The notes under the pieces: model-generated
Database searches by the model: none
What the model was told of the DNA's origin: nothing
Seen by the model: the letters and a program-made list of their open reading frames with translations, nothing else
Translations under genes and position numbers: made by a program
Assembly: GCA_963733095.1 (NCBI GenBank)
Contig: CAVTBV010000002.1
Span: 1 to 64,000 of the forward strand
Source of the DNA: Candidatus Bathyarchaeota archaeon
Lineage (GTDB): Archaea; Thermoproteota; Bathyarchaeia; Bathyarchaeales; Bathycorpusculaceae
Reading direction: 5' to 3'
DNA length: 64,000 bases
In this document: positions 3,536 to 20,610 of the stretch, piece after piece
Layout: the number at the start of each line of letters is the position of its first letter
Numbering within the stretch: the first letter of the stretch is position 1

Positions 3536-6500
3536 ATGTCCAAAGTTAAACAATCAGTCATCACGGTGGGAATTGGCGCTTCCGCGGGCGGCTTAGAAGC
3601 GTTCAAAGTTTTGCTTGAATGTTTACCAGTAGATACAGGGCTGTCATTTGTCGTTATTCAACATCTGGCAGCTGGTCAGGAAAGCATGCTAACCGATATT
3701 CTTTCAAGATTTACCAAAATGCCCGTCCAAGCTGTCAAGAATAAAATGGCTGTTGAACCAGACCACGTTTATGTAATTCCTCCAGGAAACACCATGACCA
3801 TGGAAAACAAAACCCTCATCCTTAATTCCAAGGTTAAATCGTTTAAACCAATTGATACTTTTTTTGTTTCCTTAGCTGAAGACTCGAAAAATCAAAGCAT
3901 AGGAGTTGTTCTTTCGGGAACAGGCTCCGACGGTACCGAAGGTCTAAAGGCTATCAAAGCACAGGGCGGAATCACTTTCGCTCAGACTCCAAATTCAGCT
4001 CAGTACGGCGATATGCCCCAAAGTGCCATTTCGGCGGAAGCAGCAGATTTCATTCTGACTCCAGACAAGATAGCAGCAGAAATACAAAAAATCGCTATGA
4101 ACCCTCAACTAGCGCGAAGTGAAATAGCATCAAGAGAAGAAGAAGTAGCAAAAGAAGGAAAGCCCAAGAAGGAAACAGGTTTAAACGCAATATTTGCTAT
4201 GCTCAAATTTAATTGCAATGTCGATTTCTCACATTTCAAAGAAACAGTTGTAAACCGACGTATCACACGTCGAATGGTAATTAACCACATAAAAAGAACT
4301 GCAAATTATGTAGAGTTTCTTCGGACGCATCCAAGCGAGTTGGAAGCTCTATACAATGATATGTTAATTGGAGTCACCGGCTTTTTCAGGGAGCCTGAAA
4401 CTTTCGCCGCTTTGAAAGAAAAAGTCTTACCTGAAATCGTTAAAAATCGTTCACCCAAAGAACCCATCAGAATTTGGATTCCAGGTTGCTCAACAGGAGA
4501 AGAAGCATATTCTTTCGCAATGGCAATACAAGAATACATCGAAGAAAACGACCTAACAAATATTCAAATTCAAATTTTCGGCACCGATGTGAACGAAAAA
4601 AACATTGAAAAAGCAAGAAAAGGAAGCTACCCAAAAACCATAGAAACTGACGTTCCAGAAAAACAACTAAAACATTTCTTCAAAAGTTTCAACGGCAACT
4701 ATCTAATCGCAAAAAATATTCGAGACATGTGTGTTTTCGCCAAGCAAGACATAACTGCAGACCCCCCATTCTCGAACATGGATATTATCAGCTGCCGCAA
4801 CATGCTCATTTATTTTGATGCGTACCTTCACGAAAAAGTTGTGCCTACTTTGCATTATGCATTAAAGCCGAGCGGTTTTTTGGTTTTGGGGCAGTCTGAG
4901 AGTATTGGTAAATTTACAAACTTGTTTGAGCCTTTGAAAAAGACGTCTATATATTCAAAAAAGAAAGCTCAACCAGTCATTACTTTTGGTTTACAAGCCT
5001 CATCTCGCTATCAGCAAAAGATGAAGGAAGTTAAATCTGGTGAAAAGAAAGATGCTCTTGCAATTTTGAAGGATGAAGTTGATCGTTTACTGGTGACGGA
5101 GTATGTTCCAGCTGCGCTGCTGGTTAATTCGAACTCAGATGTTCTTCTGTTTCGAGGGAATATTGCGCCATTTGTTTTGCCTGAATCTGGGTTAGCGAGT
5201 TTCAATATTGCCAAGATAACTCGAAAAGAGTTGAAATCTGAAGTTCAAACAATGATTTACAGAGCAAAAAAAGAAAATAAATCCATAAAGGAAAACGCAA
5301 TACGTTTAAATTTTGCTGGGGAACAAAAAACAATCAATATTCAGGTTATTCCGTTGCATATTGAGCAGTTTGAAGAACCTTTCTTTTTGATATTATTGGA
5401 AGATATCAGTTCAGCTGCCGCGTTAGTAAGACAAACGTTGGAGTTGGCATCTACTCCTCAAGGTCAGGAAAATGCCAAAGACAGGCAAATCCAAGAGCTC
5501 AGAGAGGAATTAGAGTCCAATAAACTGTCTTTGCAGAAAATTATAGAAACTCAAGAAGCAACCAACTAAGAATTAAGAACTACTATGGAAGAGGCACAGT
5601 CAAGCAATGAAGAATTGCAGAGCACAAATGAGGAGTTAGAAACTGCGAAGGAAGAGTTGCAATCTCGCAACGAAGAATTAAAAACCCTCAACGATGAAGT
5701 AAAAAACCGAAATGAAACACTCGCACACTTAAATGATGATTTACTTAACTTGAATAGGAACATAGGGCCTGCCATTGTTATTGTGGATAAAGGTCTTAGG
5801 ATTAGGATGTTTTCTCCTTCAGCTCAAAAAATCCTGAATCTTTTGCCTTCGGCGGTTGGCTTGTCCATTACGAGCATTAAGCTGAGAATAGATGTTGAAG
5901 ATTTAGAAAGAACAATTTTACAAGTGATTTTCAAGCTTCACAGTGTTACTAAAGAAGTAAAAGATGAAGAGGGGCATTATTATGATCTGCAAGTTAGACC
6001 CTACATTACTCTTGAGGACAAGATAGATGGCGCTGTTTTGTCTTTCATTGATGTTGAAGATAGAAAGAACCTTGAAAAGTCTCTCCGACTTGCCGCAATA
6101 GGCGAGACTGCGGGAATGGTTGGTCATGATATTCGTAACCCATTGCAGGCAATAACTGGCGACTTATATCTTGCTAGAGAAGAACTAAAAGGAATGCCTC
6201 CAAAAGAAGGAAAGCAAGCTATGGAAGAGAGCCTTATAGAGATAGAGAAGAACGTTGATTACATTAACAAGATTGTTGCTGACTTGCAAGATTATGCAAA
6301 GACGACTCAGCCTTCACCTCAAGAAACAAATTTGAAAGAACTATGTTGTGAACTACTTCAAAAAATTAAGGTGTCAGAAAATATCGAGACTTCATGCAAT
6401 ATCGATGATTCAGTTAAAATGAGCTTTGTTGATCGTAATATATTGAAGCGTGCTCTTGGCAATCTTGTTTCTAATGCAGTTCAAGCGATGCCTAATGGAG

Positions 6501-6763
6501 GAAAACTGACGTTAAGAGCATTTCAGAAAGAAGCCGATTTAGTTATCACGGTTTCAGATACTGGAATAGGTATCCCTGAAAAAGTCAAGTCGAAACTATT
6601 TACGCCATTCTTCACAACAAAATCTAAGGGACAAGGTTTAGGATTGGCCGTCGTTAAGAGAATGATTGAAGCATTAAAAGGGACTATCACATTTGAGAGC
6701 CAAGATGGCAAAGGAACCAATTTTATAGTGCGTTTGCCTTTCAAGAAGTCAAAGGATAGTTAA
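3536..6763 (+). pseudogene. CheB methylesterase/CheR methyltransferase-PAS-histidine kinase fusion split by an in-frame TAA at 5567-5569
   Basis: GIGASAGG, SGTGSDG (CheB); GCSTGEEAYS (CheR); NEELQS coiled coil; HDIRNPL H-box, N/G1/F/G2 boxes; ORFs 3536..5569 and 5585..6763 are in the same frame. Confidence 0.85.
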
Positions 6764-7671: not shown

Positions 7672-8958
7672 TTGGAGCTGAGGTGGGAGGGAATGGCTGA
7701 GCTTACATCGAAACCTTCTCCAGAGGTATTTGGCACTAAAGTCGGTTTTAATTCTTGTAAGTCAGAGTCAGCAGACGGCTCTGCCGGCAACAGCCCCCTA
7801 TGCCCACAATGCGGCTCCAAAAAGCTCTGGCGAGACGGTAGCCGATACACTATGTTTGATGATAAAATCCAACGATGGCTTTGCAAAGACTGCGGAACTA
7901 GATTCTCAGACCAAAACGACGTCCAGAAGGCAAAATCAATGGTTGAAACAGTTGAAACCGTTGAAACGAAGTCATTAAAAACCCCAGACGGCATAGTAGT
8001 TAATAGCCAAATATGCGTCACGGAGACGAAAAACTTGGTAGCGGAACAACAAATCAACAAAGTTCCGCGAAGAAACGAACAAGAAAGCAGAGGCAAAATC
8101 ATCGAACACGGCTTTTGGATGCAAAAAGAAGGCTATGCCGAATCAACAATTAGCCGAAGAATAAGACTCTTAGGAACACTCGTCAATAAAGGCGCAGACC
8201 TAAAAGACCCCGAATCAGTCAAAGAAACAATCGCCAAACAACCAAACTGGGTTACAAAAACCAAGGAAATCGCCGTCGAAACCTACGACTGCCTAATAAA
8301 ATCCCAAGGATTAACCTGGAACAAACCGATCTACCAATCCGTCAAGAAACTACCTTTCATCCCAACCGAAGAAGAACTAAACAACCTAATCGCCGGATGC
8401 AACAGAAAAACTGCAACATTCCTACAGCTACTCAAAGAAACAGGCATGCGATGCGGTGAAGCTTTCATGCTCCAATGGACCGACTTCGACTTCGAAAACA
8501 AAACCGTCAACATAACACCAGAAAAAGGAAGCGACCCACGCCAACTCAGAATCCAACCATGAGACTCATCATGATGCTAAACAGCCTACCCAAGACAAAC
8601 CCGAAACCATACAAATGCTCCCATAGACACTTCTCAAGAACCTTCACGATCCAGCGAAGCCAAATCGCCTAGTAAACTCAAAAACGACCGAATACTAAAA
8701 ATCCATTTCCACACCCTAAGACATTGGAAAGCAACCATGGAATACGCCAAAACCAAAGACATCCTTCACGTTATGAAAATGCTTGGTCACAGAAACATTC
8801 AAAACACTCTACTCTACACTCAGCTCATCAGCTTTGAAAGCGACGAATTCCACTCAGCAACCGCTAAAACAGTTCTAGACGCCCAAAAACTAATCGAAGC
8901 AGGATTTGAATACGTATGCGAATTTGGCGAAATAAAAATATTCAAAAAACGAAAGTAA
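7672..8958 (+). pseudogene. Tyrosine recombinase/integrase with N-terminal Zn ribbon, two compensating frameshifts (~8553, ~8670)
   Basis: CPQCG..CKDCG; ETGMRCGE; HFHTLRHW; LGHRNIQNTLLY; ends FKKRK; pieces 7672..8562, 8475..8672, 8737..8958. Confidence 0.88.
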
Positions 8959-9032: not shown

Positions 9033-9111
9033 TGGTGAGGCCGCTGGGATTTGAACCCAGGATCGCATACGCCCCAGGCATGTATCCTGAACCATGCTAG
9101 ACGACGGCCCC
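9033..9111 (-). tRNA. tRNA-Pro (GGG), CCA encoded
   Basis: Reverse complement GGGGCCGTCGTCTAGC...CATGC-CTGGGGC-GTATG...GGGTTCAAATCCC-AGCGGCCTCACCA; acceptor, anticodon and T stems all pair. Confidence 0.92.
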
Positions 9112-11423: not shown

Positions 11424-14306
11424 TTATTCTATGTAGATTGCTGGTTGATATGGCATTGCCATGGCTGAGCGTTGTTTGGGATCGAATCGTTTCTGGTCTG
11501 TTTCATTGTACACGCAGAATTCTGCGCTAAAGCGCTCACTCAAAAAGCCTGTTGCGCCTTCCAGTATGGCGTGTTCATCTACAACCTTGATTTTCTGCAT
11601 GTTCGCTTTGCGCTCGCTTGAAACCTTCGTTAACGCCTTGATTACGCGCGGAACCAAGTTTGCGATTTCTTTCATGTGTGGCTTTAGGTCTTTGTCGTTG
11701 GCGAATTCTTTCATTAGCTCGTTGATTTTTGCTTCGCCAGCCACGGTTTTGTCGAGAATTTTTAGGTATATCTGCCATTTCCACGGCGAGCAAGTGTAGA
11801 AGCATATGCGTTTTGGAGTTATCTTTGTGGCTTTTAGTATGTTTGTGGTGTCGGTCATTAAGTCGATGATTAGGGTTTCTTGTTCTTCAGCAGCTACATC
11901 TACTTTGTTCTGGTCAAACTTTGGCCACAAAGCAGTACTGATGAAGCCTTCTTCGCCAGTTTGGCTCCAGAGCTCTTCACAGAGGAAGGGTGCAAAGGGT
12001 GCAAGCATCTTTAGCCATGCCTTTACAGTTTCACCGAGCACTTTGGCTTCCGTGTTACCTTTTCGTTGAATGTACCAGCGCAGATCATTCCAAATCTCAA
12101 AGAGCGCAACTTGCAGGGCAGTTCGGGTCTTAAGTTCATCCAAACTGGTGGTAACCTCTCTTATTCGGCTTTGAAGTTTGCTCTGTAGCCACCGTTCCAG
12201 CATGGTATCTTCTTCTTTTTTGGCAGAAGAAATTATTCCACCTGCAAACCCGATTAAACTCTCAAACTTTGTCTGGAGGTCGCTTACGTTTTCGGCTCGC
12301 CAATCTGGGTCATCCATGCCCTCGGCACCTAACAGCAAACCACATCGGGTTGCATCTGCACCATACTTGTCGACGGCGCCCTTCATTGTTATGAAGTTGC
12401 CCTTGCTCTTGTGCATTCCTTGCCCTTCAACCATAAGCATGCCGTTTACGCCGATAGCTTTGGGCCAGTGTTCAGGCGGGAACAATGCGGCATGATGGAA
12501 TATGCAGAACGATAAGTGGTTTGGGACGAGTTCTTTGGCTGAGTTTCGCAAATCAAACGGGTACCAATACAGGAACTCTCCCCGCATAGAATCCAGCAAT
12601 TCAACCTTGATTCCAACATTGTTTGATAGTTCTCCAAGGTTTCCTTTGCCGTAGAATATGTAGTCGAAAACTTCAGGTGTTAGTGAGTTAGGATTTATTG
12701 CGTTTTGGTTTATGTGTTTGTTTACGGTGTAGAATGCCATGTAAACGGTAGAGTCGCTGAGGGTTTCTATTATCCAGCCTTTGCCCCAGGGCAGCGGTGT
12801 TCCAAAGCCTGTGGTCCGGGCGCATGCCCATTCTCGAAGCCAGTCGATAACTGTGTTGAACCATGGTTTGGCTGAATCGGGGTAAATCGTCATTTGATTG
12901 ACGGCAGCGTGGGCTTTTTCTTTCCACTCTAGGTCAGAATAATTTAAGAACCATTGGTCAGAGAGAATCTTTACTAAACACTGGGTCATGCAACGGCAAA
13001 CCACTTGCTCCGATAAGTCAAACATACTATCGGCTACGCCCATCTGTTTGAAGTCCACTATCAGGGTGTCCTTAACTTCACGCACTGACTTGCCAGCATA
13101 AGGACCACAGCTTTCTTTTAGGATTCCGCCATGGAACTCTTTTTTGTAGAGTTCTTTTGTGGCTTGGTCTGCTTTGGGGTCGTTTTGGTCTTTTATCCCC
13201 ATTTTCTCGACTATTTCCACCGCGGGGAATTCACCGAAGCCTTCAACTTTGATAATTGAGATGGGCTTAATCTGCCCGACAACCGCCGGATCCATGCCGA
13301 ATTGAGTGAGAACTTTTGGTTTTTGCTGCAGGTCGCGCAGAGCTAGCCAATCGTAGGGTGCATGTGCGGGGACACTGTAGACGACGCCTGTTGCGGTTTT
13401 GGGGTCGACAAACCATCCGGGCAGAATTGGGAACTTGAGTTTTGTAACGGGGTTTTCGAATGTTTTGCCGATGAGTTCTTTGCCTTGGAAGGTGCGTTTG
13501 ACTTCGATTTTTCTTTCCTGTTCCCCAAGTTTCTCTGCGGCTTCTTGGCTGATTATCCAGCGCTCGCCATTTACCTCTGCTTCCACGTAGGTTGCGTCGG
13601 GGTTTATCCAGATGTTTGTTATGCCGTAGATGGTTTCTGGGCGGAAGGTGGCGGCTGGCAAAATGGTGTTGTTTTCGAGCTTGTATTTTATGAGTGTGTA
13701 TTCTTCTGGGGTGACGCCTTCGCCGCTTTGTCGGTCGTGGTCGCCTGTGGGGCTTTTGTCTTTGGGGCACCAGACGACGGGGTGGGTGCCTCGTGTGACG
13801 TAGCCTTTTTCTTTGAGGTTTTTGTATTGCCACTCGATGAATTTTTGGTAGGTGGGCATTACAGTTGTGAATTCCCGTCGCCAATCCACTGAGAAACCGA
13901 TGCTTTTGGCTGCTTTGCGTCCTTCATCGGTGTAGTATTGAGCCATGTAAAGGGGGTCAACGAATTTCTCAAGTTCCGCTTCAGGTACTCCATCGACTTC
14001 GCGGAGTACTTTGATGTAAGCTTGGTCGCCTCGTGCTACTCGTTGACTTGCGCCGAGCAATGGTTGCCCGGTCCAGTGCCAACCCCAAGGCCAAAGCACA
14101 TTATAACCTTGCATACGTTTAAATCGTGCATAAGCATCAACTCGGGAAGCCGTGAAAGTGTGACCAACGTGTAATGGGCCATTCATGTATGGGTACGGGA
14201 ATGTTACCATAAATTTATGTCGTTTAAGGTCAGGGTCTGCGTCAAAAACATGGGCTTTTTCCCATTTGGCTTGCCATTTCTGCTCGAATTGCTTGGTTTG
14301 GCTCAT
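11424..14306 (-). CDS. leuS: Leucyl-tRNA synthetase (archaeal type)
   Basis: FPYPYMNGPLHVGH (HIGH), TFRPET, editing domain SVPAHAPYD, KMSKS variant GMHKS, 960 aa. Confidence 0.97.
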   Translation of the reverse strand: MSQTKQFEQKWQAKWEKAHVFDADPDLKRHKFMVTFPYPYMNGPLHVGHTFTASRVDAYARFKRMQGYNVLWPWGWHWTGQPLLGASQRVARGDQAYIKVLREVDGVPEAELEKFVDPLYMAQYYTDEGRKAAKSIGFSVDWRREFTTVMPTYQKFIEWQYKNLKEKGYVTRGTHPVVWCPKDKSPTGDHDRQSGEGVTPEEYTLIKYKLENNTILPAATFRPETIYGITNIWINPDATYVEAEVNGERWIISQEAAEKLGEQERKIEVKRTFQGKELIGKTFENPVTKLKFPILPGWFVDPKTATGVVYSVPAHAPYDWLALRDLQQKPKVLTQFGMDPAVVGQIKPISIIKVEGFGEFPAVEIVEKMGIKDQNDPKADQATKELYKKEFHGGILKESCGPYAGKSVREVKDTLIVDFKQMGVADSMFDLSEQVVCRCMTQCLVKILSDQWFLNYSDLEWKEKAHAAVNQMTIYPDSAKPWFNTVIDWLREWACARTTGFGTPLPWGKGWIIETLSDSTVYMAFYTVNKHINQNAINPNSLTPEVFDYIFYGKGNLGELSNNVGIKVELLDSMRGEFLYWYPFDLRNSAKELVPNHLSFCIFHHAALFPPEHWPKAIGVNGMLMVEGQGMHKSKGNFITMKGAVDKYGADATRCGLLLGAEGMDDPDWRAENVSDLQTKFESLIGFAGGIISSAKKEEDTMLERWLQSKLQSRIREVTTSLDELKTRTALQVALFEIWNDLRWYIQRKGNTEAKVLGETVKAWLKMLAPFAPFLCEELWSQTGEEGFISTALWPKFDQNKVDVAAEEQETLIIDLMTDTTNILKATKITPKRICFYTCSPWKWQIYLKILDKTVAGEAKINELMKEFANDKDLKPHMKEIANLVPRVIKALTKVSSERKANMQKIKVVDEHAILEGATGFLSERFSAEFCVYNETDQKRFDPKQRSAMAMPYQPAIYIE

Positions 14307-14455
14307 GAAACCTTCTGATTAAAGATTTAGCTATTAAGAGTTTTGCTTGCTTGCAATTGTAGTTCTGTTGGACATTACTGCTTTTGTAGAGTTTTTACTA
14401 AGCGGTTATATATATAGCGTATTGCGAAACCATATACAGAATTCAATCGGATCGA

Positions 14456-15310: not shown

Positions 15311-15374
15311 TAAAAAATTGCAATTCAAGAATGCGAAAAATAATTAGAAACAGGTACAAAAAGAGGTGAAATGC

Positions 15375-15428
15375 ATGGTAAACAAAAAACTAATTCGAGG
15401 AAAACCGGTTACAGCAGGTTGGTTATAA
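15375..15428 (+). CDS. Unannotated 17-aa peptide MVNKKLIRGKPVTAGWL, candidate prenylated-peptide precursor
   Basis: GAGGTGA RBS at 15363-15369, 5 nt before the ATG; TAA at 15426-15428; lies directly upstream of a prenyltransferase homolog. Confidence 0.6.
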   Translation: MVNKKLIRGKPVTAGWL

Positions 15429-15614
15429 AAATTCAAGGTAAGATATTTTTCCGGAACCTTGGAGGTAAATTAAACCTTTAACTAACCAACCTTTTTCATC
15501 CAGCAATTTCTTACGACATTTTCCGTTGAGTAAATCTGCGCTATCTTTCAAAGAATACATTTGATTGTCTGCATCTTATATATTTGAAAAACAAATACCC
15601 ATGAGAAGAGCAAG

Positions 15615-16631
15615 GTGCTGATCGAAATGTCTGCTGATGAAAAAATGATGGAAATTAGAAGAATGTTCAAACAAAAAGGCGCGGTCGCAGTGAAAAATAC
15701 CCAAAAGAACATAATAACTAACTTTAAGGATGACAGTTTTTCTTCGCAAGCTCTAAATTATTTCGCGAAAGTTACTCTGCCAAAGGCTTTACCTGTATTC
15801 CCTGCCTTGGTCTTTATTTCCTGTGAAGCTATTGGCGGAGATGTTGGAAAAACGATTCCGTTTGGCGAAGCATTAGTTTTGATAAGTGCTGCCGCTGATT
15901 TACATGATGATGTGCTTGATCAGTCTTTTGTTAAAGGAAAAAAACAGACTGTTTTGGGAAAATTCAATGCTGGCACTGCAATTTTGGCAGGTGACATTCT
16001 GCTAGCGGAGGGATTCCGACAATTAATTGTTGCATCAGAATTAATTCCTGCTGGGCAGTCTAAAGAAATCATTAAATTGGTTTCTGACGCAGTCCGAGAA
16101 ATCTGTGTTGCTGAAGCTCAAGAAATTAAGTTGCACCATAAACTTGATTTACCGCCTGCTGAATACTGGGAAATAATAAGGCTCAAAGCTGTTGTTCCTG
16201 AAATTGCAATGAAAATTGGTGCTCTTGTAGGTAATGGTTGCTCAGGAGATATTGAAGCTCTTGGACGATTCGGTCGAATATACGGGATTAATTCTATTGT
16301 AATTGAGGAGTTTGCTGACCTGCTCAATAATGGGGAACTAAAAAACAGAATAAAAAACGAGATCCCGCCACTTCCCATAATCTACGCGCTTAAAGACTCA
16401 CAAATCAAAACTTGCTTACTCTCGTTGCTTGAAGGTGATTTGTCAGGCAGAAGTATTCAACAGAAAATTGTTAAAATTGTTCTTGGCTCGCCAGACGTTG
16501 ATGCTGTGCAAAAGATATTGATTACAAACGCAAATAATGGGCTAAGAGAGATACCTGAATCAGTTAAAGGAAAAATTAGAGAAGATCTAAAGAACTTACT
16601 CTTAGTTCCTCTCAAATTTTTTGAGGTTTAA
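15615..16631 (+). CDS. Polyprenyl synthetase-fold protein with degenerate second Asp-rich motif (ComQ-like)
   Basis: FARM LHDDVLD and AILAGD present; the RRG loop is replaced by FVKG; second motif is IEEFAD. Confidence 0.8.
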   Translation: MLIEMSADEKMMEIRRMFKQKGAVAVKNTQKNIITNFKDDSFSSQALNYFAKVTLPKALPVFPALVFISCEAIGGDVGKTIPFGEALVLISAAADLHDDVLDQSFVKGKKQTVLGKFNAGTAILAGDILLAEGFRQLIVASELIPAGQSKEIIKLVSDAVREICVAEAQEIKLHHKLDLPPAEYWEIIRLKAVVPEIAMKIGALVGNGCSGDIEALGRFGRIYGINSIVIEEFADLLNNGELKNRIKNEIPPLPIIYALKDSQIKTCLLSLLEGDLSGRSIQQKIVKIVLGSPDVDAVQKILITNANNGLREIPESVKGKIREDLKNLLLVPLKFFEV

Positions 16632-16814
16632 AGCCAGCCGGCTGTTCGAGTTAATTTGTTGTTTACTTTCATTGTGGTTTCTTCTCCTTACTCCTGTAGT
16701 ACTGTTCTACGCTTAGACTTTAAAACTTTTTCGGTACTTATGTTATCCTGAATATTGCTTAGTAATTCTCAATGCTTAACTTTAACCAGTTGAACAATAA
16801 GGTGGCTATAGCAA

Positions 16815-18161
16815 ATGTTTCAAAAGATGTCCTTAGGAAAAGATAGGACATATCTCAAGCTTTCGAGTATAAATGTGATATTAGTAGCTAACGCTTTTAT
16901 CTGGTACTTGCTAGCCTTCAACGCTATAAAAGAGCTACTTGGCAAACTTAACGCTTCGAACATAAACGCTTCTACTCCTGAAACCATTTTGGTTATCGGA
17001 GTAAATACTGGAGCAATTGCAATTTCTGGGCTCCTCGGCTCCTTTTTGATTGATAGACTCAAAAAACGCGAAATCTTTCTTTACCTTTGGATAGCTTTCG
17101 GCATCATATTATCCTTCATACCACTGGGACTAAACGTATTAGACATCAATCATCTCACGATAATATCCTTAGTTTTTGGCGTTTATTTCGGACTAGGCAT
17201 GCCCGCCACCATGGGGTACAATTCTAGTTTTACTAAAGTGGAGGACCGGGCAAAAATGGGTGGTTTTACTTTCCTAATAATTGCCGCTGCTACTGCAATT
17301 GCCAGCGTATTGATATTTGATAGCATTCTAGTAACTTGCATGGTTCTTGCTTTTGTTCGTGGACTGGGGTTAGTGATTTTCCATTTCATGCGTGGAAAAG
17401 AAGAAACTAATAAAGACACAAATAAAGTAAAATATAGAAGCATTTTAACAAATAAACCCTTTATTTTCTATTTCATCCCATGGTTAATGTTTACTCTAGT
17501 AAATTATATGACGCTTCCAGTTCTGCGCCTGAACGTTAACAATTATGAATTTCTGTCGGGAGCAGAAAATATAGTCATAGCTTTAGCTGCTGTGTTTAGT
17601 GGATTTATAGCTGACCGGTGGGGACGTAAACGTTTAACCATAATTGGCTTCATTGCTCTGGGCATAGGTTACGCCGTCATAGGGCTTACAACGAATAGTT
17701 TAGGAAGCATAATTTACACTGTCTTAGATGGCGTAGCATGGGGCATTTTTTATGTGTTGTTTCTTTTTACCTTATGGGGCGATCTTGCGCAAACCCGAAA
17801 CAGTGATAAGTTCTTCTTTTTAGGTGCTTTACCTTTCGTATCTTCATATTTTATGCAGTTAGTTTTTGCCCCGTATTTAGTAGATATATTGCCAACAGCA
17901 ATTTTCTCTTTTGCCGCTTTCTTCCTATTTCTCGCTGTATTACCTTTGGTATATGCTCCAGAAACCTTACCTGAGAAGTTGATGAAGGATAGAGATCTTA
18001 AAAGCTATGTCGAGAATGCGAAAAAGAAGGCTCAGAAAGATTCTGTTAAAGGAAACAAAAAAGAAAAACCTCTGAGTATACCTGAAACGGAAAAAGTGCA
18101 AGAAACAGAAAATCCTCCTGGATATGAGGAAGCATTGGAACTTGCAGAAAAATACTATTAA
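16815..18161 (+). CDS. MFS transporter
   Basis: About 12 hydrophobic segments; GFIADRWGRK motif A. Confidence 0.88.
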   Translation: MFQKMSLGKDRTYLKLSSINVILVANAFIWYLLAFNAIKELLGKLNASNINASTPETILVIGVNTGAIAISGLLGSFLIDRLKKREIFLYLWIAFGIILSFIPLGLNVLDINHLTIISLVFGVYFGLGMPATMGYNSSFTKVEDRAKMGGFTFLIIAAATAIASVLIFDSILVTCMVLAFVRGLGLVIFHFMRGKEETNKDTNKVKYRSILTNKPFIFYFIPWLMFTLVNYMTLPVLRLNVNNYEFLSGAENIVIALAAVFSGFIADRWGRKRLTIIGFIALGIGYAVIGLTTNSLGSIIYTVLDGVAWGIFYVLFLFTLWGDLAQTRNSDKFFFLGALPFVSSYFMQLVFAPYLVDILPTAIFSFAAFFLFLAVLPLVYAPETLPEKLMKDRDLKSYVENAKKKAQKDSVKGNKKEKPLSIPETEKVQETENPPGYEEALELAEKYY

Positions 18162-18180
18162 GAAAGGCAGACCTTGATTA

Positions 18181-19317
18181 TTGTTCATGTTCTTCCATGT
18201 GATACTGACAAGTGACTGCAACTTACAATGCAAATACTGCTTTGGCGAGAGCCTTGACGACTTCGACGAAAACTTCGGCGAGGACATAGAAATCGACTAC
18301 GATTTGCCACGCCAACTCAACTACGATTTGGAAATGCTCAAAGAGTTTTGCCGAAAAGACCCAGAATGCGTTTTAACATTTTACGGTGGCGAACCTTTGC
18401 TCGGGATAGATAAATTGAAGCAAATTATGAATAAGGTGCCGCCTAAGCATTTTATGATTCAGACAAACGGTTTACTTTTGGATAAGTTGGAGTCAAAATA
18501 CGTTAATCGCTTCCACACAATACTTGTTTCAATAGATGGGGAAGAAGCATTGACAGATTATTACCGTGGAGCAGGAACTTTCAGGAAGGTAATTAATAAC
18601 TTGAAACTAATCAAGAAAAACGGTTTTAGAGGGGAACTAATCGCGCGCATGACCATAATGGAGCAAACCGACATCAACAAACAGGTCCGATGGCTCCTGG
18701 ATAACAATGAGTTTTCTTTTTCCTCAATACACTGGCAACTTAACGCGGGTTTTTGGGGAAACGATTACCAACGCCGCAACTTTGAAGATTGGACAAAAAA
18801 AAGTTACATTCCAGGGGTTCGGGAACTCGCGCATTTTTGGGTTGATCAAATGCAGGAAAAGGGCGTAGTTTTGAAGCTCTATCCACTGCTTGGAATTGCC
18901 GAGTCCCTGCTTCATGACGAAAAAAACTGTCTAATGCGCTGCGGAGGAGGATGGATAAACTATGCCATCCAAACCGACGGTTACATTATGCCTTGTCCAA
19001 CCATGTGGGGAATGAAAAAATATTATTTAGGACACATTAAAGATGCTGACCCGCTTAAACTGAAACAGCTCTTTGTTAACGAAAAACCCTGTAGTCAATG
19101 CTCTATTCTCGGCGTTTGCGGAGGCAGATGCTTGTACACTAACATTACTAAACGTTGGAGTGATGAAGCTTACGGCAAAGTTTGCTTCACAGTAGAGCAA
19201 CTCATCGAGTCAGTGAAAGCTGAAGTTCCAAGAATCCAAGAACTGATAAAGAATGGGCGAATTAGGCTTCAAGACTTCAAATACCTCAAATACAATGGTT
19301 GCGAAATAATCCCATAA
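18181..19317 (+). CDS. Radical SAM/SPASM protein (AF0577-like putative peptide-modifying family)
   Basis: CNLQCKYC, YGGEPLL, QTNG; C-terminal CGGG..PC..CSQC..CGGRC..C SPASM cysteines. Confidence 0.88.
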   Translation: MFMFFHVILTSDCNLQCKYCFGESLDDFDENFGEDIEIDYDLPRQLNYDLEMLKEFCRKDPECVLTFYGGEPLLGIDKLKQIMNKVPPKHFMIQTNGLLLDKLESKYVNRFHTILVSIDGEEALTDYYRGAGTFRKVINNLKLIKKNGFRGELIARMTIMEQTDINKQVRWLLDNNEFSFSSIHWQLNAGFWGNDYQRRNFEDWTKKSYIPGVRELAHFWVDQMQEKGVVLKLYPLLGIAESLLHDEKNCLMRCGGGWINYAIQTDGYIMPCPTMWGMKKYYLGHIKDADPLKLKQLFVNEKPCSQCSILGVCGGRCLYTNITKRWSDEAYGKVCFTVEQLIESVKAEVPRIQELIKNGRIRLQDFKYLKYNGCEIIP

Positions 19318-19672: not shown

Positions 19673-20284
19673 ATGGGAAAATTATCTAAGAATCAGCGAA
19701 AAAGAGAGATAATGAAAGTCGACGTTAAGCAGTCTAAGCAATCAACACTAGAAGACCTCTCTTTTCAGTTCAACATTGAAAGGACAAAGGAGGCAATCAA
19801 ATCAAACAAAGTAATTGTGATTAACCATATCTCCGAATCAACTAAAGAAGACGAGTTATTCCTCAGAGTTGAATTTACCTTACTACCCTCAAAGGCATCA
19901 TTTTCAAAAATTAACCTTGATCTGTATTTTCAAGAGATCATGCTCAATTCAACACCACTAATAATACCTCAAAGTCAACTGTTAAATGACAATTTTGAGG
20001 TTCCACAAGTCTTAGAGATGAAAGGGATTGTAGCAGGAGAATATCTGATCAGGGTCGAAATGTATGAGCCGTGGACTTCTGTTGAAAAGCTAAACTTTAC
20101 GGCAAAAGAAATTATTGTTCATTATGTGCCGCAAAATAGAGAAGAGCGATTAGTGAAAATCCCAACTGTGAAGAGCGTTGCAGGAATAGACCTAACGGTT
20201 GTTTCACCTGCCGCAAAAAACATCTTCCACGATATAGGACAAGACCAAAAACAAGAAGCAATGAGCAAAAGAGACGAATGGTAA
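19673..20284 (+). CDS. Hypothetical protein (Ig-like beta-sandwich)
   Basis: 203-aa ORF with beta-rich pattern GEYLIRVEMY. Confidence 0.55.
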   Translation: MGKLSKNQRKREIMKVDVKQSKQSTLEDLSFQFNIERTKEAIKSNKVIVINHISESTKEDELFLRVEFTLLPSKASFSKINLDLYFQEIMLNSTPLIIPQSQLLNDNFEVPQVLEMKGIVAGEYLIRVEMYEPWTSVEKLNFTAKEIIVHYVPQNREERLVKIPTVKSVAGIDLTVVSPAAKNIFHDIGQDQKQEAMSKRDEW

Positions 20285-20379: not shown

Positions 20380-20610
20380 ATGACTGAACCAGACTTACCC
20401 TTCATTAAACCGGGGCCAGAAATTTCTTCAGAAACAAATGAGCTTATTCCACCCTCACCAGACGTAAAGAATCCGTTGCCTAATCATGAGCCCATTGAAA
20501 AGATGGAGACCGAGACTTTTATTTGTCCTGTTTGTGGAAAATCCTTCGATACGAAGGATGATCTTGATTTGCATATGGCAAAAAGTCATGGTCAAACAAA
20601 GAAAGCCTAA
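20380..20610 (+). CDS. C2H2 zinc-finger protein
   Basis: FICPVCGKSFDTKDDLDLHMAKSH. Confidence 0.8.
   Translation: MTEPDLPFIKPGPEISSETNELIPPSPDVKNPLPNHEPIEKMETETFICPVCGKSFDTKDDLDLHMAKSHGQTKKA

Follow-up and report, generated by a model that had tools for sequence, protein, structure and literature searches.

Positions 1 to 64,000 of contig CAVTBV010000002.1 from a Candidatus Bathyarchaeota archaeon (this whole stretch of 64,000 nucleotides is called the window below) contain two very small peptide genes, pepA and pepB, together with a gene for a divergent relative of the trans-isoprenyl diphosphate synthases, here called the prenyl-like enzyme. The two peptides, 17 and 14 residues long, share their last five residues, TAGWL, which are encoded by different codons in the two genes. 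Comparison across related genomes supports well the conclusion that both tiny genes are real and tied to the enzyme gene, and we hold this to be very probable. Our preferred reading, to which we give a probability of about one half, is that the locus encodes an archaeal Trp-prenylated peptide system like ComQ/ComX, PalQ/PalX and StheQ/StheX, with an independent origin from an archaeal geranylgeranyl diphosphate (GGPP) synthase-like ancestor.

Two peptide genes with matched tails

In a first survey 41 related genomes were searched with the prenyl-like enzyme, 29 of which gave a match at E <= 1e-10, and 20 stretches around enzyme matches were used for tblastn and small open reading frame (ORF) scans. 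An alignment-based scan of species-representative genomes returned 240 enzyme relatives, from which 79 loci were taken forward, almost all titled Candidatus Bathyarchaeota or Bathyarchaeia. The main set, made up of the 79 loci and the window, holds 82 enzyme genes, since three loci have two genes each, and counts given out of 76 refer to the enzyme genes with at least 450 nt upstream and at least 300 nt downstream. An independent metagenome set comprises 94 enzyme relatives, from which 80 loci were taken, with 31–44% identity to the query; 74 of these were usable.

We define class A peptides as those encoded on the same strand as the enzyme and upstream of its gene, directly behind a trypsin-like protease gene, and class B peptides as those encoded on the opposite strand by genes that converge with the enzyme gene and lie directly past its end. 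Both are found in the window, pepA being of class A and pepB of class B (Table 1). The original prediction for this DNA, made from the letters alone, had described a GAGGTGA ribosome-binding site followed by a 17-residue ORF with a basic leader and a Trp second from the C-terminus, and all of these are found where it placed them, the ATG of pepA lying 5 nt past GAGGTGA; it mentioned neither pepB on the minus strand nor the protease gene linked to pepA. In the 20 related stretches, tblastn with the 17-residue ORF matched in the three closest loci, and scanning for a ribosome-binding site followed by a short Trp-ending ORF recovered pepA or a clear relative in nine. A (G)AGGTGAA site precedes the start by 4–6 nt in nearly all class A genes. 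An overlapping 36-residue ORF (15371–15481) was rejected as a candidate, since it is not conserved and has no tblastn match in the 20 stretches.

Class B peptides were found in 56/76 loci and class A peptides in 28/76, with at least one peptide in 66/76. The filter for class B returned 2/76 on the wrong strand, 32/1520 in shuffled sequences and 87/1520 in random stretches of the loci, and the wrong-strand control for class A gave 1/76, so the peptide conserved beside enzyme homologues on which the original prediction had staked its case is indeed present. A plainly spurious, Cys-rich class A call in L102 was removed by hand before counting, and at least two doubtful ones (L100 and L125) were left in the class A count. 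In the metagenome set a class B peptide was found in 29/74 loci, compared with 1/74 on the wrong strand; at least eight further peptides of the MKKYQPIAVRVWL type are visible by eye and were missed by the filter, while about 25 of the more distant metagenome loci show no peptide. The stop codon of pepB overlaps that of the enzyme gene, and in most loci the class B gene ends between 17 nt inside and 66 nt past the enzyme gene's stop.

Two near-identical loci differ in the peptide ORF by two synonymous changes only. Among near relatives the conserved residues of the peptides are written in changing codons (Arg as CGA, AGA, AGG or CGT; Pro as CCA or CCG; Gly as GGC, GGA or GGT; Lys likewise varying), which indicates that the peptide ORFs are coding. 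Eleven class B peptides of 14 residues all have M1, K2, K6, R9 and G12, and ten of them have W13, the one lacking it (L092) having its Trp as the last residue; positions 10, 11 and 14 vary, and nine different residues follow the Trp in the ten peptides that have a residue there. Across the family the peptides are 10–21 residues long with basic leaders of about 9–13 residues, Cys is nearly absent from them, and in clade II of the enzyme tree (see below) the pair G-W is invariant. The 20–21-residue versions of four peptides have no Pfam or NCBIfam match at E up to 10. Precursors of 10–21 codons are among the shortest conceivable and go unreported by gene callers; these show the traits of precursors of peptides that are made on the ribosome and modified after translation (RiPPs), namely a conserved leader, a variable core and several precursors with one core.

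Conserved class-B-like frames without an ATG, GTG or TTG start occur in L034 (about 5900–5970), L035 (about 5910–5980) and L063 (9018–9125), where the start position is occupied by ATA in the first two and by a Thr codon in the third; these may reflect use of near-cognate starts, or may be decaying copies. In L049 (5794–6960, minus strand) the enzyme ORF is extended to 388 residues and overlaps a class B peptide on the other strand.

The two peptides of a pair agree at their C-terminal ends. In all six frames of the 2.8-Mb genome, only the pepA and pepB frames end in TAGWL followed by a stop codon. Across 18 pairs of class A and class B peptides, 4.28 of the last five residues are identical on average, compared with 1.85 ± 0.24 when partners are shuffled, and none of 10,000 shuffles reached the observed value. 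The matched tails elsewhere include QAGWI, LTGWY, SSGWV, SAGWM, WSGWL, TFGGW and SFGGW among others, so tails differ between genomes yet agree inside one genome. Comparison of 90 tail codons gave 43 identities, many of which are the single Trp codon, 34 synonymous differences and 13 non-synonymous ones; the 34 synonymous differences indicate that the match is kept at the protein level, and they rule out an inverted repeat in the flanking DNA as its source. In class B peptides a conserved Arg usually stands immediately before the shared stretch, which suggests a product made of the four to six C-terminal residues, with the basic part as leader. The variability of the tails resembles that of pheromone or RiPP cores.

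The prenyl-like enzyme and its proposed bacterial counterparts

The enzyme ORF is open from a GTG at 15615, where the original prediction had put the start. Orthologues align from the ATG at 15627 and the GTG sits within an AAGGTG ribosome site, so the gene most likely starts at this ATG instead. Profile matches to 113 solved chains of the isoprenyl diphosphate synthase (IPPS) type place the protein among the homologues of trans-isoprenyl diphosphate synthases. Entries 9v4g, 9v4h and 9v4i for the indole prenyltransferase Ord1 were matched at about 1e-25, no better than many synthases, and there was no ComQ model among the 14 NCBIfam models matched.

The same genome encodes three canonical paralogues, which score 180–217 bits against PF00348, compared with 64 bits for the prenyl-like enzyme, and keep GGKRxRP, a His before the first motif, DDxxDxxxxRRG and FQxxDDxxD. 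Set against these paralogues, the divergent family has a deletion together with (L)PVFPAL, small residues and DDxxDxSxxK. In the window's enzyme the first motif reads LHDDVLD, VKG stands at the position of RRG, and the second motif is IEEFAD; the original prediction had given the two Asp-rich motifs in this form and had noted the lack of RRG, and the alignment confirms both.

In an alignment of 61 family members the first Asp-rich motif HDDxxD (H94, D95, D96 and D99) is present in 61/61, while GKRxRP and RRG are lost, with Lys at the first Arg position of RRG in 60/61. The second motif takes the form [DE][ED]FxD, with D36/E20/N4 at position 1, E50/D11 at position 2 and D60 at position 5. New invariant residues follow it, E239 and R243 (in ELxNR) and P252. 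The basic residues lost are those that hold isopentenyl diphosphate (IPP) in the structures of farnesyl diphosphate (FPP) synthase; the loss of these IPP-site residues, with the motif for metal and allylic diphosphate intact, argues that the prenyl chain goes to a different acceptor. Four and five places ahead of the first motif the family has small residues (Ala, Gly or Ser). In canonical synthases small residues at this place go with long products, so a donor of C20 or longer is possible.

Phylogenetic analysis places the family in one clade apart from the three canonical paralogues (support 100/99), and the type of peptide tracks the enzyme's sub-clades. Clade I is confined to class B peptides with the pattern P-[IV]-R-x(2-4)-W-x; in clade II, the peptides of clade IIa end in ...GGW and those of clade IIb, to which the window belongs, in xxGW-x. 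Peptides of the pepB type are found from the deepest branches of the enzyme tree onwards, while the protease and class A peptides appear within clade II. A complex of the L063 enzyme (61-row alignment) with peptide was also predicted, for which a natural 35-residue L063 ORF holding the class B peptide stood in for the peptide, the peptides themselves being under 30 residues; its score of 0.01 against a mark of 0.32 has no bearing either way.

Some genomes carry more than one copy of the enzyme. Loci L054 (4784–10527) and L075 (4972–10407) each hold two pairs of enzyme and major facilitator superfamily (MFS) transporter genes in tandem. In L054 the first pair is accompanied by a class B peptide ending in GVWF and the second by a class A peptide ending in SAGWPH; in L075 there is a peptide at the second pair only, of class A and ending in NWGGW. 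One sampled genome has three enzyme paralogues at separate loci.

Bacterial enzymes of the same fold offer the closest functional comparison. Published reports describe ComQ, PalQ, StheQ and the P domain of ChrPC as synthase-fold enzymes that prenylate the Trp of a peptide encoded by an adjacent gene; all characterised transferases of this type act on a Trp at or near the peptide C-terminus, which is the C-terminal residue for PalQ, the second from the end for StheQ and the third from the end for ComX168, and these enzymes bind the donor at the first motif and have an altered second one (PMC13290415; PMC10853753; 10.64898/2026.08.29.745113). A Gln before the second motif has been proposed to recognise the indole and is named as key to Trp recognition in ComQ, PalQ and Ord1, and a Gly beside the Trp is reported to ease access in PalQ (PMC13290415). 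The second motif of ComQ is an NDXXX pseudo-motif (10.64898/2026.08.29.745113).

The archaeal family resembles ComQ and ComX of the Bacillus quorum-sensing system comQXPA in a trans-IPPS fold with the first motif kept and the second altered, in an adjacent gene for a Trp peptide, and in the variability of that peptide, between strains for ComX and between genomes here. It differs in being archaeal and apparently independently derived, its clade being sister to the genome's own canonical synthases; in having two precursor genes with matched cores; and in its usual neighbours, which are the MFS and protease genes rather than ComP and ComA. The second motif, called degenerate in the original prediction, is indeed altered; what does not stand is that it is simply degenerate, for [DE][ED]FxD is conserved and acidic, unlike the NDXXX of ComQ, and no Gln precedes it. 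With both the Gln and the NDXXX motif absent, the family should not be filed under ComQ, though it would work in a ComQ-like way.

PalQ of Paenibacillus alvei comes closer in one respect, as it keeps acidic residues in the second motif (D200 and D204); it is annotated as a terpene or isoprene synthase, accepts the core peptide alone as substrate and prenylates the very C-terminal Trp, which compares with the ...GGW ends of clade IIa (PMC10853753). PalX, on the other hand, has a long NHLP leader domain, a core that follows cleavage after T72 and a kinase neighbour, in place of the short basic leaders found here (PMC10853753). In the window's clade one residue follows the Trp, and an extension of this kind abolishes PalQ activity (PMC13290415). 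In StheQ/StheX of Sphaerobacter thermophilus the Trp is second from the C-terminus, as in TAGWL, and StheQ has the IPPS fold, a single Mg site at the first motif and an adjacent peptide gene; StheX is 69 residues long, however, and StheQ keeps an NDxxD pseudo-motif and Q212, both absent from the archaeal family (10.64898/2026.08.29.745113). A literature search, at the level of listings and abstracts, found no archaeal Trp-prenylated peptide and no archaeal ComQ-like case.

Very short precursors with a modified C-terminal aromatic residue and a SPASM enzyme nearby are also features of the pyrroloquinoline quinone (PQQ) and mycofactocin pathways. Those pathways have one and the same core in all species and a recognition protein (PqqD or MftB), whereas the core here varies between genomes and the radical SAM gene of the locus occurs independently of the peptides.

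Neighbouring genes and transcription units

The features of the locus are collected in Table 1. The original prediction had named a polyprenyl-synthase-fold gene, an MFS gene and a radical SAM/SPASM gene downstream of the peptide on the same strand, and Pfam and NCBIfam agree with these assignments. Rfam and ARAGORN (tRNA) scans gave no match across the locus region.

Table 1. Features of the peptide locus, in window coordinates
Feature	Position	Strand	Remarks
Leucyl-tRNA synthetase (LeuRS) gene	11424-14306	minus	
Trypsin-like serine protease gene, secreted, 284 residues	14456-15310	plus	Pfam Trypsin E 1.6e-9
Ribosome-binding site of pepA, GAGGTGA	15363-15369	plus	
pepA, 17-residue peptide MVNKKLIRGKPVTAGWL, ATG to TAA	15375-15428	plus	Basic leader, K-P, tail TAGWL
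Trans-isoprenyl-diphosphate-synthase-like gene (prenyl-like enzyme), 334 residues	15627-16631	plus	PF00348 E 2e-17, 63.7 bits
pepB, 14-residue peptide MKVNNKLTRTAGWL	16672 (ATG) to 16628 (TAA)	minus	Convergent with the prenyl-like enzyme gene
pepB promoter (predicted), conserved	16695-16735	minus	Alignment of upstream regions
MFS transporter gene, 448 residues	16815-18161	plus	Pfam MFS_1 E 5e-20
Radical SAM/SPASM gene, TIGR04084 rSAM_AF0577	18181-19317	plus	306.1 bits against a cut-off of 225

The MFS gene, which the original prediction had included in the system, adjoins the prenyl-like enzyme gene in 71/76 loci. Its product has about 11 hydrophobic segments, and no solved relative was found by sequence search. 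A LeuRS gene lies nearby in 39/76 loci.

The protease weakly matches chymotrypsinogen C, with alignment of the His, Asp and GDSGGP Ser motifs, and has one hydrophobic N-terminal segment (residues 8–26). A class A peptide stands behind it in 19/19 loci that have the protease upstream, and one extra locus, chosen through the protease alone, shows protease, peptide and then MFS gene. Class A genes lie about 30–70 nt behind the protease stop (64 nt for pepA), with a strong GAGGTGAA site, no TATA-like box of their own and T-runs after them, an arrangement in which pepA appears to be a second cistron that follows the protease gene.

The upstream region of pepB is built differently, with CCGAAA, resembling a transcription factor B recognition element (BRE), the TATA-like TTTTAAAG, and then CGTAGAACAGTACTACA, which carries a TGTnnAACA-n3-ATACA element. 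The consensus of 48 aligned upstream regions is ccgaAAa.TTTTTAAG......TGTacAACA.AaATACAg, and a TTTWAW box is found 28–62 nt before the class B start in 48/60 loci, compared with 224/3000 random positions. This conserved motif is a putative promoter or operator, and the TGTnnAACA element may be a regulator site. The composite motif has a single site in the window's whole genome, before pepB. A candidate second copy, GTCCAACAGAACTACA at 14358–14373 on the minus strand, about 50 nt before the LeuRS start, has three mismatches and was rejected as not significant; in the shuffling control for the element, 6 of 100 shuffles reached two matches.

In one sub-lineage (L034, L035 and L061, with enzymes 47–49% identical to that of the window) a histidine kinase gene, on the enzyme gene's strand and immediately upstream of it, takes the place of the MFS gene. 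The kinase has 444–455 residues with HisKA and HATPase_c domains, and its N-terminal part contains at least five hydrophobic segments; the sub-lineage has no MFS gene there, and a class B peptide lies at the enzyme's 3' end. The arrangement is that of ComP and PalP in the bacterial systems; the kinase was found in 0/80 metagenome loci, and we rejected a kinase link as a general feature of the family. L061 and L067, as well as the proteins P0049 and P0105, are archaeal-type loci or enzymes under bacterial titles of metagenome-assembled genomes (Sulfotelmatobacter, Limnocylindrales and Ignavibacteria), and these contigs are probably misbinned.

Elsewhere in the window, positions 3536–6763 hold a gene for a CheB methylesterase–CheR methyltransferase fusion (677 residues), with, immediately after it, a PAS-domain histidine kinase gene (392 residues) whose product is without the membrane sensor present in the kinase adjoining the L061 enzyme gene. 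A 296-residue ORF (7672–8562) matches only the beginning of a phage-integrase domain (positions 4–68 of 172 in PF00589) and lies close to a tRNA-Pro(GGG) gene (9033–9111, minus strand); it may be the leftover of an integrated element. On the 3' side of the radical SAM gene are a 203-residue ORF without a family (19673–20284) and a gene for a 76-residue C2H2 zinc-finger protein (20380–20610), neither of which has a tblastn match in the 20 related stretches.

A candidate prenylated peptide and its alternatives

The genes themselves, their conservation and linkage, the matched tails and the enzyme's lost motifs are shown by the sequence comparisons. The scheme that we infer from these comparisons, covering prenylation and its donor, export, cleavage and signalling, is as follows. 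Two precursors with differing basic leaders would supply one common C-terminal core. The soluble enzyme, with its Mg and allylic-diphosphate site (HDDxxD) kept and its IPP site gone, would move a prenyl chain onto the indole of the last or next-to-last residue of the peptide, a Trp, and the MFS protein would export the resulting lipopeptide. The secreted trypsin-like protease, probably co-transcribed with pepA, would trim the basic leader; in pepB the conserved Arg lies directly ahead of the shared core. This would yield a short Trp peptide that carries a prenyl group and varies in sequence from species to species, and such variation plausibly fits a signal (pheromone) better than a cofactor.

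Several observations weigh against this scheme. The Gln before the second motif is found in 0/61 family members (the column holds T33, I14, A6, L4, S2 and M1), the NDXXX pseudo-motif of ComQ and StheQ is absent from the family, and the acidic residues retained in the second motif could serve another Mg-dependent reaction. No peptide was found in 10/76 loci, nor by the filter in 45/74 metagenome loci. Precursors of 10–21 residues without a recognisable leader domain are far shorter than ComX, StheX and PalX. The precursor of ComX has about 55 residues. The position of pepA as a second cistron behind the protease gene, with T-runs after it, suggests that pepA and the enzyme gene are probably not on one transcript. 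No receptor is evident in the window; the adjacency of the kinase is a single evolutionary event, seen at 3/82 enzyme genes, and distant homologues of the kinase sensor (12/201 genomes of the order, 14 loci) have no prenyl-like gene within about 750 nt downstream. The radical SAM/SPASM gene could also be the true or an additional modifying enzyme.

Of the other explanations, the one that survives best, though we consider it unlikely, is that the peptides are exported without being prenylated and act unmodified or otherwise modified, the enzyme having another task (such as the synthesis or binding of an isoprenoid transported by the MFS protein) and the linkage being regulatory. In its favour are the missing Gln signature of known Trp prenyltransferases and the seven loci with enzyme and MFS genes yet no peptide, and the separate conserved promoter of pepB, with its palindrome-like, genome-unique element, suggests a dedicated regulator. 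A C-terminal pentapeptide following a basic residue also resembles unmodified signals of the Phr type. Against this, pepB abuts the enzyme gene over the enzyme's whole phylogeny and the peptide type follows the enzyme clade, and in L061 peptide and enzyme stay together though the kinase replaces the MFS protein. An enzyme with an allylic site alone, moreover, needs an acceptor other than IPP, and a conserved Trp is encoded next door.

Rather improbable, in our view, is the idea that the radical SAM/SPASM protein is the main peptide maturase, for instance cross-linking the Trp tail, with the prenyl-like protein as an accessory. Its gene begins 19 nt past the MFS gene and is adjacent in 57/76 loci. 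The protein has the radical SAM motif (CxxxCxxC, here CNLQCKYC) at residues 13–20 and a C-terminal, Cys-rich SPASM domain (E 1.2e-10), belongs to TIGR04084 by score, and gives distant matches to the peptide maturases PapB (4e-31), Nif11 maturase (4e-24) and DynA (5e-18). It is, however, 70–91% identical across the genus, compared with 30–62% for the enzyme and 32–66% for the MFS protein, and is absent from 15/66 peptide-bearing loci. TIGR04084 exceeds its cut-off in 20/61 genomes sampled across the class, and 10/10 loci from other lineages of the class have neither a prenyl-like gene nor an MFS relative nor such a peptide nearby, the neighbours being unrelated (genes for histidyl-tRNA synthetase, PurS, an amino-acid kinase and a nitroreductase). 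A radical SAM peptide maturase would be expected to have an N-terminal peptide-recognition domain, for which a motif starting at residue 13 leaves no room, and the peptides offer almost no Cys. A literature search for TIGR04084 found no paper, and none of the papers listed for AF0577 was relevant. An obligatory partnership is thus not supported by the stand-alone occurrence elsewhere, and the far stronger conservation and the stand-alone loci make membership of this protein in the peptide system, as the original prediction had it, doubtful.

We regard it as very improbable that the enzyme is a normal synthase of GGPP or polyprenyl diphosphate beside which the small ORFs have no relevance. Public sources do call its relatives 'geranylgeranyl pyrophosphate synthase' or 'heptaprenyl diphosphate synthase', and among solved proteins the archaeal GGPP synthase 1WY0 is the nearest to it in sequence (profile E 4.9e-40), with which it has the PF00348 fold family in common. 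All 14 NCBIfam matches nevertheless fall below their cut-offs, the best, to IdsA_Meth, reaching 92.2 bits against the 468 required of that equivalog (E 3.6e-26). The family is without the GKRxRP, the His before the first motif, the RRG, the FQ and the DDxxD second motif of the archaeal GGPP synthases, its genome already has three canonical synthases, and the peptide genes are conserved far above chance. Least credible is that the small ORFs are untranslated parts of a conserved terminator, small RNA or inverted repeat, since, although pepB overlaps the enzyme gene's 3' end and tails identical in DNA would make an inverted repeat, the tails match in amino acids with 34 synonymous codon differences, conserved Arg, Pro, Gly and Lys stand in varying codons, ribosome sites consistently precede the starts, and Rfam finds nothing.

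Prenylation of a peptide Trp by synthase-like enzymes is known only from a few bacterial systems (ComQ, PalQ, ChrPC and StheQ), and an entire archaeal clade of enzymes appears to have changed function in the same way independently. If the Trp-prenylation reading is true, the 'GGPP synthase' annotations of these genes are wrong, and the family would provide new, probably long-chain, Trp prenyltransferases for peptide lipidation, as well as a clean case from nature of two precursor genes whose protein sequences stay matched. The product would be the first ribosomal lipopeptide of Archaea, possibly with the first archaeal peptide quorum sensing. It is possible, and we advance it tentatively, that Bathyarchaeia use peptide pheromones in the form of a prenylated C-terminal Trp pentapeptide, made from two micro-precursors under different regulation, pepB with an operator-bearing promoter of its own and pepA on one transcript with the processing protease, and diversifying between species like the pherotypes of Bacillus. 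Archaea would then have their first quorum-sensing system based on a peptide and their first Trp-prenylated RiPP.

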